From the sequence record NC_019724.1: a DNA stretch of 43,741 nt. The stretch is one strand, 5' to 3'. Under the pieces are notes generated by a model that was not told where the DNA came from, did no database searches, and saw nothing but the letters and a program-made list of their open reading frames with translations. A program made the translations under genes and the position numbers. Origin of the DNA: Escherichia phage HK578. Below are positions 4,578-43,741 of this stretch, piece by piece; within the stretch, counting starts at the first letter, position 1; each line of letters starts with the position of its first letter.

Positions 4578-4899
4578 ATATGCAGCTATTGGACTGATTA
4601 TCGGTCTGGTGGTAGGATTCTGGCTAGGTGACTCCTATCGCACTGGCGTAGTGGCGGAGGCGGCGCAAGAAGCGCAAGCCCAAGCCCAACGGCAGCAAAC
4701 TAAAGTTGTTGAGCGCTCCGTGCAGGCCGAACAGGCACGCGACGTGGAATACCGGACTATCACGAAAGAGGTTGTTAAATATGTTACGCGCCCTAACCGC
4801 CCTGATTGTAGTTTTGATGCTGAGCGCGTGCGGATCAAGCAACGTGCCGTTGATGCCGCTAACGGAGTCGGCACTGCGACCGCCGTGCAAGTTCGATAA
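4570..4899 (+). CDS. putative i-spanin (Rz-like)
   Basis: GTG start after GGGGG SD; N-terminal TM helix IKYAAIGLIIGLVVGFWLG followed by charged helical periplasmic domain (AEAAQEAQAQAQRQQ...); overlapped by +1-frame lipoprotein ORF. Longer TTG-start version begins at 4540. Confidence 0.5.
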   Translation: MIKYAAIGLIIGLVVGFWLGDSYRTGVVAEAAQEAQAQAQRQQTKVVERSVQAEQARDVEYRTITKEVVKYVTRPNRPDCSFDAERVRIKQRAVDAANGVGTATAVQVR

Positions 4900-5011
4900 C
4901 CCGTCTGCGGACCCCGACGAAGATTTGATGATTGACGTGAAAAATATGGAATGCGGGGCTAAGCTAAGGGCGCAGGTGCTGGAGTTGCAGCAAATAATTA
5001 AGGGGCCGTAA
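4781..5011 (+). CDS. putative o-spanin (Rz1-like lipoprotein)
   Basis: ATG 4781 with SD AAGAGG; signal peptide MLRALTALIVVLMLSAC with lipobox LSAC; mature part short, Pro-rich, with Cys; in +1 frame overlapping 3' end of 4570..4899. Confidence 0.55.
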   Translation: MLRALTALIVVLMLSACGSSNVPLMPLTESALRPPCKFDNPSADPDEDLMIDVKNMECGAKLRAQVLELQQIIKGP

Positions 5012-5022
5012 TGGCCCCTTTT
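5002..5022 (+). terminator. intrinsic terminator after spanin genes
   Basis: GGGGCC-gtaat-GGCCCC followed by TTTT; stop codon of o-spanin lies in the loop; second hairpin GGGGC-tttc-GCCCC at ~5053-5066. Confidence 0.6.
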
Positions 5023-5077
5023 CGTCAGTCTCATTTTTGTGTCCTCGTTGTTGGGGCTTTCGCCCCGTTTGGTTTAG

Positions 5078-5485
5078 TTAAAGTGCTTCAAGAATCTCGT
5101 AAAACTTATTCGCCAGCGCCTGGCGACGTTCGAATTTCTCAGTGATAACCAATTCAGGGCGGTTAAATCTCTTTGCGTGTATGTTCCAATTGTGGATTTC
5201 CGTCTCCATTATTTTCTTACGGTTATAGTCGGTGTTTTTGATGCTAAATTCCTTGATTGCGTTGTTAAGAAAATCAGTCATATACTCAATGTCGGATATC
5301 GTAACTTCGAACGTGCGGGCTTCGATTACGCTATTGGTGCGAAGTACGACGACGCCGCCGTGGTAGGTGTCGACTACCATATACTTGTAAGTCACCCCGT
5401 CCCACTCCGGATCGAAAGGGCGACCAAATACGTCGTCGGCTTTCCAGACTTTCAGGTACGGTGTTTCTTTGATTAATGTTGGCAT
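5078..5485 (-). CDS. hypothetical protein (moron)
   Basis: 135-aa ORF from ATG 5485 (MPTLIKETPYLK...) with SD GAAGGAAAA; opposite strand to flanking head genes; appears AT-richer than neighbours by eye. Confidence 0.6.
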   Translation of the reverse strand: MPTLIKETPYLKVWKADDVFGRPFDPEWDGVTYKYMVVDTYHGGVVVLRTNSVIEARTFEVTISDIEYMTDFLNNAIKEFSIKNTDYNRKKIMETEIHNWNIHAKRFNRPELVITEKFERRQALANKFYEILEAL

Positions 5486-5520
5486 CTTGTTTTCCTTCAT
5501 ATCTCTGTTGGTGTGCAACC

Positions 5521-5550
5521 AATATACTGCAACCAATATCCGCAATGCAA
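5521..5550 (-). promoter_or_regulatory. sigma70-like promoter for 5078..5485
   Basis: minus strand TTGCAT-18 nt-TATATT; spacer and -10 overlap two TGCAACCAAT copies (5514-5523, 5528-5537). Confidence 0.4.
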
Positions 5551-24705: not shown

Positions 24706-24735
24706 ACTATAGTGCAACCAACCTATTGGTTGCAA
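24706..24735 (-). promoter_or_regulatory. sigma70-like promoter overlapping palindromic operator-like site
   Basis: minus strand TTGCAA-18 nt-TATAGT; embedded perfect inverted repeat TGCAACCAA-ccta-TTGGTTGCA (24713-24734). Confidence 0.4.
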
Positions 24736-35367: not shown

Positions 35368-35396
35368 ATATTAGATTGGTTGCAGAAGGGAGTCAA
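35368..35396 (-). promoter_or_regulatory. early leftward sigma70-like promoter
   Basis: minus strand TTGACT-17 nt-TAATAT; ATTGGTTGCA (35375-35384) lies in the spacer. Confidence 0.5.
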
Positions 35397-38539: not shown

Positions 38540-38698
38540 CATAAAATCCCGGATTGCATAATACACGGCAGCATGTTGCGGATTGCGGTCGTCGCTGAAC
38601 TAGGCAACCAATGCGAGTTGCAGAATGGTGGGTGAAAAATGCAGTTTGCAGTCACAGCAGATAGCGATCAACTTTTTCATGCGCGTGATTAATATTGG

Positions 38699-38727
38699 TT
38701 GCATCCGCCCCAGCACCCTGCTATATT
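38699..38727 (+). promoter_or_regulatory. sigma70-like promoter for 38755 gene
   Basis: TTGCAT-17 nt-TATATT; ATTGGTTGCA copies at 38694-38703 and 38725-38734; downstream 22-mer identical to the one upstream of 5078..5485. Confidence 0.45.
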
Positions 38728-38754
38728 GGTTGCACACCAACAGGAGGGCGGAAC

Positions 38755-40575: not shown

Positions 40576-40594
40576 ATATGCAAGCGTGATATAG

Positions 40595-40627
40595 TCCCAG
40601 TGAGCTAAAACTTACTGGGACTTTTTT
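40595..40627 (+). terminator. terminator-like hairpin abutting the holin start codon
   Basis: TCCCAGT-12-nt loop-ACTGGGA followed by CTTTTTT, then ATG 40628 with no SD. Confidence 0.45.
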
Positions 40628-40918
40628 ATGGATAAGCTAAACGAGTGGCTATTCGCCCTGGCATGTCTGGCGGGTGGCTTCGTAGGCGCACGCCTTCATG
40701 GTGAGGCTACGAAAGGGCCGCTAAACTTCGTTTTGTATGTCGTAGTTGGCTTCCTGTGTGCCATATTTGGCGCACCGGCTATTGCCGAGTGGGCTGGTTT
40801 GTCGGGTGAGCGCACTGTCGCCGGTTTGGGCTTCGTAACCGCGATTTTCTGGATGCCAATCGCCGACCGGATCAGGGAGACTATTGCGTCGTTCCGACTT
40901 CCGGGGGGTGTAAAATGA
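40628..40918 (+). CDS. putative holin
   Basis: 96 aa with ~3 predicted TM segments and charged C-terminus, two genes upstream of the lysozyme gene. Confidence 0.55.
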   Translation: MDKLNEWLFALACLAGGFVGARLHGEATKGPLNFVLYVVVGFLCAIFGAPAIAEWAGLSGERTVAGLGFVTAIFWMPIADRIRETIASFRLPGGVK

Positions 40919-41160
40919 TTATCACCGTCCTGTTGTTTGTTATCATAGGGGCTTCGTCCCTGTTTAACGTGTATGCGCCGTCCGTCCAGGATGGCATCTT
41001 GGGCCGGGTGCTGTATCTGTTAACGGCAATGGTCTGTATTATCGGATTGCTGCAAACAGGAGACGTATCAGATACCACCTGGACCGCGTTAATCTGGCTG
41101 TTTGCATTGCGCACCCTGCGTAATGCTGTTTTGAATGGGGTAAAACATGCGATTCAGTGA
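40915..41160 (+). CDS. small membrane protein (second holin or antiholin-like)
   Basis: 81 aa, ~3 hydrophobic segments, SD GGGGGGTG, overlaps both neighbours. Confidence 0.5.
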   Translation: MIITVLLFVIIGASSLFNVYAPSVQDGILGRVLYLLTAMVCIIGLLQTGDVSDTTWTALIWLFALRTLRNAVLNGVKHAIQ

Positions 41161-41638
41161 TAACGGTCTACGATTTACGGCAGCATGGGAGACTTTCAGC
41201 CCAGTGCCGTATTTCGCGACTAAGAAAGAGCAGGCCCGCGGCCTGTACACCTGGGGTTATGGTCATACTGGCACTAATCCGCCTCGAAGCATTACCCGCG
41301 AGGAAGCGCTGGAACTGCTCAAGCGCGATGTGGCGTATGCCGAGGACTGGGTGAACAAATACGCGCATAAGAGCATTAACCAGGCGCAATTCGACGCGCT
41401 GGTGGACCTGGTAATCAATGCCGGTCCGGGGCCGATCGTACCGGATGACGTCGCGAATGATTTCGATGATGCGGTGCGACTGGGAGACTGGGCGAAGGTC
41501 CGTGCTACGCTGCCGCAGTTCCGAAAACAAGGCGGTGAAGTGCTTAAGGGTCTGGTGCGCCGTGCAATCGGCAGACAGGCGCTATTCGATGGTAAGCAGT
41601 GGGACGTTGCCGAGCGAATCGGTCGTAACGCTGCATAA
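41147..41638 (+). CDS. endolysin (GH24 lysozyme)
   Basis: 163 aa; catalytic-region pattern WETFSPVPYF...YTWGYGHTG and INQAQFDALVDLVINAG resembling lambda R / T4 e-type lysozymes. Confidence 0.85.
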   Translation: MRFSDNGLRFTAAWETFSPVPYFATKKEQARGLYTWGYGHTGTNPPRSITREEALELLKRDVAYAEDWVNKYAHKSINQAQFDALVDLVINAGPGPIVPDDVANDFDDAVRLGDWAKVRATLPQFRKQGGEVLKGLVRRAIGRQALFDGKQWDVAERIGRNAA

Positions 41639-41654
41639 GACGAGGTGACACGAT

Positions 41655-42056
41655 ATGTTAGATTCGATCTTGCGACGTAAAGAACGCATTATCAAGACAC
41701 TGCCCGCAGTGCAGAACCCAGAAGCGCGCCGCATCCTGGCAGGGGATATGAATGTATCAGGCGTCTTCGACAAGGCCGTGCCTGAAGGGACGCCGGTGGC
41801 GAGCGCTACCGTTACCATCACGCCAGCTACCGCCGCAGTTGGTGAGACCGCCGCCGCGACTGTTGCCATCCTGCCATCCGGCGCGACCAACAAGGCCGGA
41901 TCGTGGGTGTCGGCGAACCCTAACCGCGCCTCAATCAATCCGACTACCGGCGAAATCACCGCGAAAGCTGCGGGTAACGTCCGCATCGTTTGGGTGGCGT
42001 CCGACGGTAGCGGGGTGCAGGCTGACGCAGGCTTCACAGTAACGGCAGCAGAGTAA
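41655..42056 (+). CDS. Ig-like (Big_2-type) domain protein
   Basis: 133 aa; C-terminal ~80 aa Thr/Ala/Val-rich with pattern typical of bacterial Ig-like group 2 domains; followed by terminator. Confidence 0.5.
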   Translation: MLDSILRRKERIIKTLPAVQNPEARRILAGDMNVSGVFDKAVPEGTPVASATVTITPATAAVGETAAATVAILPSGATNKAGSWVSANPNRASINPTTGEITAKAAGNVRIVWVASDGSGVQADAGFTVTAAE

Positions 42057-42062
42057 ACCAAC

Positions 42063-42088
42063 AAGCCCGGTTAATTCCGGGCTTTTTA
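42063..42088 (+). terminator. intrinsic terminator
   Basis: AAGCCCGG-ttaatt-CCGGGCTT followed by TTTT. Confidence 0.7.
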
Positions 42089-42151
42089 TTGCTTGACTTG
42101 CAACCAACATAGACGCCATACTGCGACCAATCAACGAGAGGAGTAATCAAG

Positions 42152-42232
42152 ATGGCACGTAAAGATATTTGGGTATTAGCGATCTGGACCACCGCGGCTT
42201 TTATCGGCATGGTTATTTGCGAATTGATATAG
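42152..42232 (+). CDS. hydrophobic micro-ORF (26 aa)
   Basis: MARKDIWVLAIWTTAAFIGMVICELI; SD GAGAGGAG 8 nt upstream; preceded by TTGACT and two motif copies; not in ORF track (below length cutoff). Confidence 0.35.
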   Translation: MARKDIWVLAIWTTAAFIGMVICELI

Positions 42233-42293
42233 CCCGCCGCCATACGGACCGTGATATATTGTCCACGGTCCACTAATCAGGAATTAATTAAAT

Positions 42294-43436
42294 ATGCACC
42301 CGCAAACTAAAATTACCGATGAGCAATTGATCGCAGAAATTCAGGCAGGGACTACGGTTAAAGAGATTGCGAAGAAATACGGGATTGCCCTGCGCAATGT
42401 CTATATGCGGAAAGCCCGCCTGTCGAAAAAAGGAATTGGGCACGGCAACGACGCCGTAATCCGCAAGCGCGTTGCCGATGGATTCGGCGTTAAGCGCGTA
42501 TCGGCCCTGGTGCGCGGCAATGGCGAAGAGGTCATGTCGTGGGTCATCACTGAGCAGGATAAGGAGCGCCAACTCGAAGCTATGCGCGCTGTTGTCGAAG
42601 GTATGAACAGCGAAATCACACCGGCAGCGCCAGTAAAGGCCCCGCCAGTCCCGATCCAGGCGCTCGACTTGCTCAACCTGTACACTGTGTCCGACTTCCA
42701 CTTGGGCATGTTGGCATGGGGTGAGGAGACTGGCGAAGACTGGGATATGGCGATTGCTGAAGACCTGTTCTACCGCTGGTTTGTCGAAGCCTTCGCCCGC
42801 GCACCGGACGCAGGCACTGCCGTTATCAATATCCTCGGCGATATGGCCCACTTTGACAGCCTTGATGCCGTCACACCAGCAAGCGGTCACGTACTGGACG
42901 CCGACACGCGATACCAGAAGTTGGTCCGCTATATGATACGCATGGTGCGCAACGTCGTAGAACTGGCGCTGCAAAAACACCACAAAGTCAAACTGCTAAT
43001 CGTCCAGGGTAATCATGACGAATCGGGTATGATTTGGCTTGCTGAGATGTTCAATACCTTGTATGAGAACGAGCCGCGCGTTGATGTGGACACGTCCCCG
43101 GACGTCTACAAAATGGTGCAGCACGGTAAGACTACGCTATTCTTCCACCACGGGCACAAAGCGCGATTCGATGTTATCGAGCAGGTTATGATCGCTAAAT
43201 TTAGACAGGCATTCGGGTCGAGCGAATACAGCTACGCGCACGTAGGCCATTTGCACCACCAGAAGATTGTCGAGTCTCGCAACATGATTGTTGAACAGCA
43301 CAGGACGCTCGCAGCGAAAGACGCCTACGCCAGCCGCGGCGGCTGGATGAGCGGTCGCAGTGCCAACGTCATTACCTACAGCGCCAACTACGGCGAAGTA
43401 GCGCGCTTAACCATTAGCCCGGAAATGTTGAAATGA
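42294..43436 (+). CDS. HTH domain fused to calcineurin-like metallophosphoesterase
   Basis: 380 aa; N-terminal HTH (TVKEIAKKYGIALRNVYMR); phosphoesterase motifs SDFHLG, GDMAHFD, LIVQGNHDE, FFHHGH, VGHLHH. Confidence 0.6.
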   Translation: MHPQTKITDEQLIAEIQAGTTVKEIAKKYGIALRNVYMRKARLSKKGIGHGNDAVIRKRVADGFGVKRVSALVRGNGEEVMSWVITEQDKERQLEAMRAVVEGMNSEITPAAPVKAPPVPIQALDLLNLYTVSDFHLGMLAWGEETGEDWDMAIAEDLFYRWFVEAFARAPDAGTAVINILGDMAHFDSLDAVTPASGHVLDADTRYQKLVRYMIRMVRNVVELALQKHHKVKLLIVQGNHDESGMIWLAEMFNTLYENEPRVDVDTSPDVYKMVQHGKTTLFFHHGHKARFDVIEQVMIAKFRQAFGSSEYSYAHVGHLHHQKIVESRNMIVEQHRTLAAKDAYASRGGWMSGRSANVITYSANYGEVARLTISPEMLK

Positions 43437-43645
43437 TTAGACAAGTATTCATGAGCACGCAGGCGGCCCGCCTGAAAGAGCTACGCAAACAACTCGAAGG
43501 CTTGCGACGATTCGAACGAACGGCAGCGGCAATCGGCATGTCTATTAGCGAGCGGATCGAGATACTATCGCAAATACGCTACACAGAAGGCGCGATAAGC
43601 GAAGTAGAAAGCATGTTAACCCGATACTACGGTCGCGCCGTTTAG
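43433..43645 (+). CDS. hypothetical small protein
   Basis: 70 aa, start overlaps upstream stop (ATGA), followed by terminator. Confidence 0.45.
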   Translation: MIRQVFMSTQAARLKELRKQLEGLRRFERTAAAIGMSISERIEILSQIRYTEGAISEVESMLTRYYGRAV

Positions 43646-43652
43646 CCCTCCT

Positions 43653-43678
43653 AGCCCGCCGATTTGGTGGGCTTTTTT
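43653..43678 (+). terminator. intrinsic terminator
   Basis: AGCCCGCC-gattt-GGTGGGCT followed by TTTTTT. Confidence 0.7.
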
Positions 43679-43741
43679 GTGCCTGTTATAATCCCCCTTA
43701 GATGGCAGGGCCGTCTCCTATGTTGCCGATGGTCGGCGCAT

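Follow-up and report, generated by a model that had tools for sequence, protein, structure and literature searches.

A conserved 26-codon frame of Dhillonvirus phages that probably encodes an accessory membrane micro-protein

Escherichia phage HK578 (record NC_019724.1), whose 43,741 nucleotides (nt) are referred to below as the window, contains, between its lysis genes and the gene of a helix-turn-helix (HTH)-metallophosphoesterase, an open reading frame (ORF) of 26 codons. As far as sequence comparison can tell, this micro-ORF is a genuine protein-coding gene of Dhillonvirus phages, held under purifying selection on its amino-acid sequence. That it is a real, selected and accessory gene for a membrane micro-protein is, in our opinion, very probable, a judgement that covers the gene and leaves its specific function aside. 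The window is a complete genome of the genus Dhillonvirus, which consists of HK578-like virulent siphophages with genomes of 43-46 kb. An earlier note on this DNA, made from its letters, had described a strongly initiated hydrophobic micro-ORF downstream of a terminator and a motif pair, and its elements (the terminator, the hexamer TTGACT, the motif copies, the Shine-Dalgarno sequence and the 26-codon ORF with its TAG) are all present where it had placed them (Table 1). A well-supported gene is thereby added to a genus that features in phage-therapy and defence-system work; the Dhillonvirus literature (on anti-Tmn, Retron-Eco7, ApeA, daunorubicin and BASEL) is silent on the micro-ORF region.

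The evidence that carries this conclusion is the pattern of variation among relatives. A query of 600 nt around the micro-ORF has matches at 80-97% identity in 156 phage records, almost all of which are Escherichia phages of the genus Dhillonvirus, and the peptide was found by tblastn in 111 phage records, all of Dhillonvirus type, at 73-100% identity. Thirty-five loci bearing the micro-ORF were gathered from GenBank phage records, IMG/VR and metagenomes and gave 24 distinct cores of 75 nt; a degenerate DNA pattern for DIWVLAIW, with 11 metagenome and 8 viral-contig matches, contributed few extra usable loci. All homologues begin with ATG, and this ATG, together with a GGAG-type ribosome-binding site, is present in 34/34 loci that keep the full-length ORF. 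Variable columns at codon positions 1, 2 and 3 of the distinct cores number 7, 5 and 17, respectively. The pairwise ratio of nonsynonymous to synonymous polymorphism (pN/pS) is 0.16 in the frame of the micro-ORF (+1), compared with 0.39-3.5 in the other five frames. Moreover, 24 of the 40 distinct single-site variants are synonymous, as against 11.4 +/- 2.8 under a null in which the same base changes are placed at random (P = 5e-5). Half of the residues (13/26) are invariant, namely M1, R3, D5, I6, V8, A10, I11, F17, I18, M20, I22, C23 and E24. Conservation of the reading frame among relatives had been proposed in the earlier note as a check on its claim; the claim survived it, the frame being free of internal stops in all 24 cores.

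The second line of evidence is the character of the encoded peptide. A frame of this length is by itself not beyond chance, 52 ORFs of at least 20 amino acids (aa) being present in a 3.7-kb stretch. The mean Kyte-Doolittle hydropathy of peptide residues 6-26, however, is 2.1, and the micro-ORF alone reaches this value among the 153 ATG-initiated ORFs of 20-40 aa that the six frames of the whole window contain. A single transmembrane helix (I6-I26) is predicted, preceded by a charged N-terminus (MARKD) that is predicted to be cytoplasmic, the topology following from the positive-inside rule and hydropathy. The hydrophobic single-helix product named in the earlier note is thus borne out. In this arrangement E24 and C23 would sit near the periplasmic face, and a line of small residues formed by A15, G19 and C23 would suit helix-helix packing. 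The note was also correct that the frame falls below the usual length cutoff: most pipelines drop it as too short, and it is because of its length that annotation has largely missed it, most of the 111 records having no annotated feature under the match. The peptide has no match in Pfam, PHROGs, NCBIfam, PADLOC or the sequences of the PDB (Pfam and NCBIfam searched at E up to 10), and an exact look-up of its 26 residues in a collection of 15 billion proteins gave no identical entry. At the DNA level 5,426 complete E. coli genomes contain no match to the micro-ORF, and there is therefore no sign of a host origin.

The third line of evidence is the conservation of the expression signals. The intrinsic terminator that closes the lysis and Ig (immunoglobulin)-domain gene unit is kept in all relatives and is annotated as a terminator in the records of PTXU06 and WF5505. 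Downstream of it, both hexamers of the predicted promoter P1 and their 18-nt spacing are conserved in about 30 distinct relatives, while the bases in the middle of the spacer vary; in some relatives the -10 hexamer is TATACT instead of CATACT. Analogously, the Shine-Dalgarno sequence is conserved as GAGAGGAG, GAGAAGGAG or AAGAGGAG, whereas the bases between it and the ATG vary. In relatives that have an extra ORF upstream, the final codons of that ORF provide GGAG or GAG for the same purpose. No terminator is predicted on the plus strand within 42090-43653, the hairpin downstream of the micro-ORF lacking a T-run; for this reason P1 transcripts would carry the micro-ORF and run on into the phosphoesterase gene. 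It should be noted that two points weigh against this reading of the locus. The compared sequences share kinship, so that the statistics given above count variant alleles and not independent events, and the P1 hexamers taken alone occur at chance level, the promoter scan giving 2 sites where 2.1 are expected from shuffles.

Table 1. Features of the micro-ORF locus, its surroundings in the window and the corresponding slot in other phages (window positions unless a locus is named)
Feature	Position	Strand	Remarks
Two holin-like genes	40628-41160		Lysis block
Lysozyme gene	41147-41638		Lysis block
Ig-domain protein gene	41655-42056		End of lysis block
Intergenic region, 237 nt			Between Ig-domain gene and phosphoesterase gene; houses the micro-ORF
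Intrinsic terminator	42063-42084, T-run to 42089	+	8-bp GC-rich stem, 6-nt loop; terminator scan
Promoter P1 (predicted)	42093-42122	+	-35 TTGACT 42093-42098, 18-nt spacer, -10 CATACT 42117-42122; promoter scan
Motif copy 1, TGCAACCAA	42099-42107	+	Adjoins the P1 -35 hexamer
Motif copy 2, TGCGACCAAT	42122-42131	+	Overlaps the last -10 base of P1 and the likely transcription start
Shine-Dalgarno sequence, GAGAGGAG	42136-42143	+	8 nt 5' of the ATG at 42152; read from the sequence
Micro-ORF, peptide MARKDIWVLAIWTTAAFIGMVICELI	42152-42232	+	26 codons, then TAG at 42230-42232
Inverted repeat GGACCGTG-N10-CACGGTCC	42246-42271	+	14 nt after the micro-ORF stop; unique in the window
P2 extended -10, TG-A-TATATT (putative)	42252-42260	+	Enclosed by the inverted repeat
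HTH-metallophosphoesterase gene, 380 aa	42294-43436	+	Next gene in the predicted P1 read-through transcript
70-residue ORF			3' of the phosphoesterase gene; followed by the terminase genes at the window start
TGCRACCAA sites	5514-5536, 21605, 24713-24734, 25951, 35376, 38695-38734, 39433, 42099-42131		
PF14373 slot protein	about 45-85 nt upstream of match start		Loci L017-L058, L062-L063, L071
T1-like micro-ORF	about 520-602 (L111-L124); 2407-2487 (L072)		

The accessory status of the gene is indicated by its distribution. P1, the ribosome-binding site and the ORF form a cassette of roughly 140 nt, located between the terminator of the lysis unit and P2, the putative promoter of the phosphoesterase gene, with a GC content of 43-44% compared with 54.5% for the genome. 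Three relatives (L010, L011 and L013) lack promoter and ORF through a precise indel of about 140 nt while keeping the phosphoesterase gene; another (L016) has P1 and no micro-ORF; and in Sodalis phage SO-1 the frame is truncated, about 45 nt having been deleted between CCGCCGC repeats. In PS2 (L108) and HH3 (P0003) the stop codon is lost through TAG-to-TAT and TAG-to-TTG changes, respectively, which yields a read-through product of 52 residues, annotated as such, that spans P2 and extends into the beginning of the phosphoesterase gene. A search with this 52-residue form among 5.8 billion protein clusters retrieved five proteins, all from Dhillonvirus-type contigs. Since the cassette is absent from some relatives and truncated or deprived of its stop in others, it is dispensable and in this respect moron-like.

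Where neighbours have been inserted, the micro-ORF acts like any ordinary member of a small operon, overlapping them in the usual coupled fashion. Thus, in EK99P-1 and two others an ORF of 70 residues is inserted upstream, and its stop overlaps micro-ORF codons 3-4. Downstream of the micro-ORF stands an ORF of 57 residues in SSL-2009a, Oekolampad and Opt212, or of 56 residues in KarlBarth and WF5505. In these genomes the inserted ATG overlaps the last micro-ORF codons, the peptide tail ELI or ELL is changed to EVMYGF, EVTYGI or EVING, and codons 24-25 become GAG GTG, which provides the ribosome-binding site of the next ORF. The KarlBarth locus (L101; NC_073057, 42129-43006) is further distinguished in that the phosphoesterase gene is missing there: the micro-ORF and the 56-residue ORF are followed by a homologue of the window ORF 43433-43645, and the sequence at the junction, TTGAAATGATTAGACAAG, is identical to that found where the phosphoesterase gene of the window ends.

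These properties recall the moron elements of which HK97 gene 15 is an example (PMC3594210): a gene for a small inner-membrane protein with its own promoter is situated between conserved genes, differs from its neighbours in GC content, is present or absent among relatives and is not needed for growth. The micro-ORF cassette has the features of a moron apart from a terminator of its own, the place of the promoter being taken by the conserved promoter-like TTGACT-N18-CATACT. Unlike HK97 gene 15, the micro-ORF encodes a much shorter peptide, which has no YebO match, and the HK578-like phage is virulent, not temperate. The product of the micro-ORF belongs among the small phage membrane proteins that reside in accessory, moron-like cassettes.

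What other phages carry at the same position bears on function. To this end 68 IMG/VR loci with a relative of the phosphoesterase were fetched, together with 14 for the T1-like branch; the enzyme is about 75% identical in the Kagunavirus-type branch and about 41% identical in the T1-like one. Directly upstream of the phosphoesterase gene, 28 of the 56 non-Dhillonvirus loci have a protein of the Imm_superinfect family (PF14373; E = 2e-15), which also corresponds to phrog_1039, 'immunity to superinfection'. In the Kagunavirus slot this protein has 59-63 residues and two helices, ends 43-84 nt before the ATG of the phosphoesterase gene and is named 'superinfection immunity protein' in GenBank (MT711524, OM272052 and others); promoter-like hexamers precede its gene, and one record annotates a promoter there. 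One locus (L045) has instead an N-terminally anchored protein of 97 residues whose similarity to YebO is weak (E = 7e-4, which falls short of the curated cut-off), YebO-like being the family of the HK97 gp15 superinfection-exclusion moron (PMC3594210). Other loci have signal-peptide proteins of about 108 residues (phrog_14165) or other membrane proteins. The slot upstream of the phosphoesterase gene thus recurrently holds small envelope-targeted proteins, and two of their families are linked to superinfection exclusion.

The T1-like phages (Drexlerviridae), of which the Dhillonviruses have been described as relatives (PMC8594841), have a micro-ORF of their own in this slot. It encodes 22-26 hydrophobic residues (MWRLFALPFPVIIATAIMYKIIMLGA family) and stops 1-14 nt short of the phosphoesterase ATG, and the ribosome-binding site of the enzyme gene lies within it. 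It was found by tblastn in 142 records, where it often is unannotated or lies under a mis-extended phosphoesterase annotation; most of those examined lack an annotation that matches the frame of this second family. Its coding signal is weaker (pN/pS 0.44 on six distinct sequences). Size, hydrophobic single-helix character, position relative to a homologous gene and a mostly unannotated state are common to both micro-ORFs; the T1-like frame, however, abuts the enzyme gene and includes its ribosome-binding site, whereas the Dhillonvirus frame has its own predicted promoter, and P2 stands between it and the enzyme gene. Homology between the two was considered and rejected (hhalign probability 0.1%). 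That a micro membrane protein is repeatedly paired with the phosphoesterase in several siphophage groups is, in our opinion, the most interesting lead to emerge from this analysis.

Since the corresponding slot is occupied, in relatives both close and distant, by other small envelope proteins, some of them of the superinfection-immunity type, our best guess for the role of the peptide is superinfection exclusion at the DNA-entry step. This is offered tentatively and should be read as a guess that may well prove wrong. In this scheme P1 would be transcribed by host RNA polymerase, possibly under the control of whatever binds TGCAACCAA; the micro-ORF would be translated and its product inserted in the inner membrane as one helix, where, as its context suggests, it would serve as an accessory factor. 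The Imm_superinfect proteins are comparable in being small inner-membrane proteins encoded in the same slot upstream of a homologous phosphoesterase gene, with promoter-like hexamers 5' of their genes. They differ in that those of the slot have two membrane helices and 59-63 residues, compared with the 26 residues of the Dhillonvirus peptide, to which neither the PF14373 profile nor the YebO-like/HK97 gp15 family (PF13974) gives a match (hmmscan against Pfam at E up to 10). Two further considerations count against the guess: the functional assignment is one of position only, there being no sequence similarity to PF14373, YebO or another family, and a peptide of 26 residues has hardly any surface through which it could act on the tail of an incoming phage. 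If such peptides do block superinfection or act together with the nuclease, they would rank with the smallest known phage effectors; their length permits chemical synthesis, so that testing them would be easy.

The earlier note had suggested a toxin, a holin modulator or a regulator. The peptide could instead be a membrane-active toxin or host-takeover factor that, in the manner of the chromosomal type I toxins of similar size, perturbs or depolarises the inner membrane early in infection and so shuts down host functions, a role that we consider unlikely. Bacteria have type I toxins and small membrane regulators in the range of 20-50 residues, for example ShoB, Ibs and TisB on the one hand and MgrB, AcrZ and KdpF on the other. 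The micro-ORF peptide resembles them in length, in its single hydrophobic helix and in its short charged end, and the layout of a short charged N-terminus followed by hydrophobic sequence to the C-terminus recalls, like its size, the ShoB/Ibs type. A strong ribosome-binding site and a predicted promoter of its own are in keeping with such a role, and the small-residue face of A15, G19 and C23, along with the invariant E24 and D5, would suit oligomerisation. On the other hand, searches of Pfam and NCBIfam with E values up to 10 match the peptide to none of the type I toxin families (Hok, Ldr, Ibs, ShoB, TisB and others), and the 5,426 E. coli genomes contain no homologue at the DNA level. An antisense RNA signal is likewise missing, no minus-strand promoter-like site or antisense element having been found in 41000-43741 and no Rfam family scoring above threshold. 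Furthermore, several relatives have lost the gene without replacement.

A functional partnership with the downstream HTH-metallophosphoesterase, in which the peptide acts, for example, as a membrane tether or modulator of that nuclease within an old and conserved two-gene module, is suggested by the fact that a small hydrophobic or envelope protein precedes the phosphoesterase homologues in most loci examined. The close apposition seen in T1-like phages, where the micro-ORF stops just short of the enzyme ATG and includes its ribosome-binding site, points in the same direction. The 380-aa enzyme matches phrog_704, 'DNA repair exonuclease' (E = 2e-161), and has weak Pfam matches to Metallophos and to an N-terminal HTH. 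In the Dhillonvirus genomes, however, the two genes are separated by P2 and in some cases also by unrelated ORFs, KarlBarth has the micro-ORF and no phosphoesterase gene at this position, and L010, L011 and L013 have the enzyme but no peptide. Moreover, no relationship can be detected among the small proteins found in the different lineages (hhalign probability 0.1%). We therefore regard the partnership as distinctly doubtful. Improbable, too, is its broadest form, a joint claim according to which micro-protein and HTH-metallophosphoesterase constitute an old two-part module of Dhillonvirus, T1-like and related siphophages. There, the membrane micro-protein or a non-homologous replacement of the Imm type would place or control the nuclease at the inner membrane, and the nuclease could act on incoming DNA, be it superinfecting genomes or the phage's own.

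The element that separates the two genes, P2, is itself strongly conserved. The core (C/A)(C/A)(G/A)TG(G/A)TATATTG is present in 33/33 distinct relatives, including those that lack the micro-ORF, and takes the form CCGTGGTATATTG in most. The arms of the surrounding inverted repeat are only moderately conserved and vary without clean covariation in a check for compensatory changes; as RNA, the repeat would fold into a hairpin of -15 kcal/mol (z = -1.9). Because the TGGTATATT core is near-invariant and the arms vary, the inverted repeat is read mainly as a promoter element, and because the core is kept in relatives without the micro-ORF, P2 probably serves the phosphoesterase gene as a promoter of its own. 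In addition, the arms could act as an operator, or as an RNA hairpin on P1 transcripts.

The proximity of the lysis genes raises the question of whether the peptide is a lysis accessory, be it a holin modulator, an antiholin or a spanin substitute. The micro-ORF begins 95 nt after the lysis block (holin-holin-endolysin-Ig) and its product is a predicted membrane peptide; no spanin candidate was seen, and none is annotated in Dhillonvirus-type phages. Nevertheless, the conserved terminator and a separate predicted promoter divide the micro-ORF from the lysis unit, the peptide has no similarity to either holin and no lipobox, and there are relatives with the same lysis genes and no micro-ORF. 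The small membrane ORFs of the Kagunavirus-type and T1-like phages adjoin the phosphoesterase gene and not the lysis genes. A role in lysis thus appears improbable. Mimicry of a holin helix was also considered and rejected, as BLASTP searches at E up to 100 produced no alignment with either holin-like protein. The lysis block itself (two holin-like genes, lysozyme and Ig-domain gene) is flanked by two terminators, at 40593-40622 and 42063-42084. Only 5 nt lie between the end of the upstream one and the first holin ATG, too few to accommodate a promoter.

It is very improbable that the micro-ORF is a leader or upstream ORF, such that the act of translation matters and not the peptide, and that it sets the expression or stability of the downstream message, for example by means of the hairpin 14 nt after its stop. 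The location of the ORF between P1 and the phosphoesterase gene, the presence of that hairpin and the translational coupling of neighbouring ORFs to the micro-ORF in variant genomes would all suit such a role. It is at odds with the purifying selection on the amino-acid sequence (pN/pS 0.16, 13 invariant residues) and with the phosphoesterase gene having its own conserved promoter and ribosome-binding site. Moreover, no terminator follows the ORF, the fold of the whole transcript is no better than that of shuffled sequences (z = 0.17), and Rfam reports no family above threshold, its leader hits scoring 18-25 bits against cut-offs of 41-55 bits and lying over the upstream terminator. A small RNA or leader element thus finds no support in either Rfam or RNA folding.

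The same 240 nt (42034-42276) are annotated in public records in three mutually exclusive ways, as a minus-strand ORF, as a +3-frame ORF with a TTG start or as in-frame forms of varying length, while most records annotate nothing. The in-frame annotation is restricted to SSL-2009a (orf65, 29 aa), PS2, HH3, Opt212 and CHD5UKE2; in the last two it has implausible 5' extensions that start inside the promoter. That the real gene is either of the overlapping frames, the minus-strand ORF of the 'JL1_4' type (79 aa, 42034-42273; annotated in PEC14, JL1 and others) or the 35-aa +3-frame ORF (42169-42276; annotated in McMelon and 101114BS4), is scarcely credible, since both fit the variation worse: the +3 frame has a pN/pS of 3.5, 5/40 synonymous variants and a TTG start, and the minus-strand ORF has a pN/pS of 0.39 compared with 0.16, is interrupted by stop codons in 3/24 sequences and would traverse both the terminator and the promoter. 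The minus frame does show some synonymous excess (17/40, P = 0.014), which is a point against the main reading; it shares its wobble position with that frame, and this explains its weaker, partial signal. It follows that the 26-codon frame is the coding one, and the conflict between the three GenBank annotations of the stretch can be resolved for the frame that most pipelines discard.

The motif pair that the earlier note had associated with the micro-ORF is real, both copies being positionally conserved in relatives; it is not, however, private to this gene. The 9-mer TGCRACCAA occurs 12 times in the window, where 0.86 copies are expected and none of 100 shuffles reaches that number, and 13 times (1.03 expected) at corresponding, syntenic sites in phage Lzu_P3. 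The copies are mostly intergenic or in promoter regions and often paired. One site (24713-24734) is a perfect palindrome, TGCAACCAAcctaTTGGTTGCA, and the copy at 35376 lies between the -35 and -10 elements of a TTGACT...TAATAT promoter. The motif looks like the binding site of a putative regulator, and for motif copy 2 at P1 a role as operator may be proposed. Because P1 is bracketed by two copies of a 12-copy motif, it is probably wired into the phage's own transcription programme.

Two side observations were made in the course of this work. The Cronobacter phage ESP2949-1 group (L053, 2402-2485) has in the slot upstream of the phosphoesterase gene an unrelated hydrophobic ORF of 24-27 residues, MKSFIGVVLAALITWFFVYIVVMQ, which ends 9 nt before that gene and is conserved in 7 records. 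In the window, the plus-strand block of head genes is broken by a minus-strand gene pair at about 4624-5545, which corresponds to P3_00009 and P3_00010 in the annotation of Lzu_P3; a tandem TGCAACCAA motif pair, which on the minus strand reads TATATTGGTTGCA twice, stands upstream of these genes.

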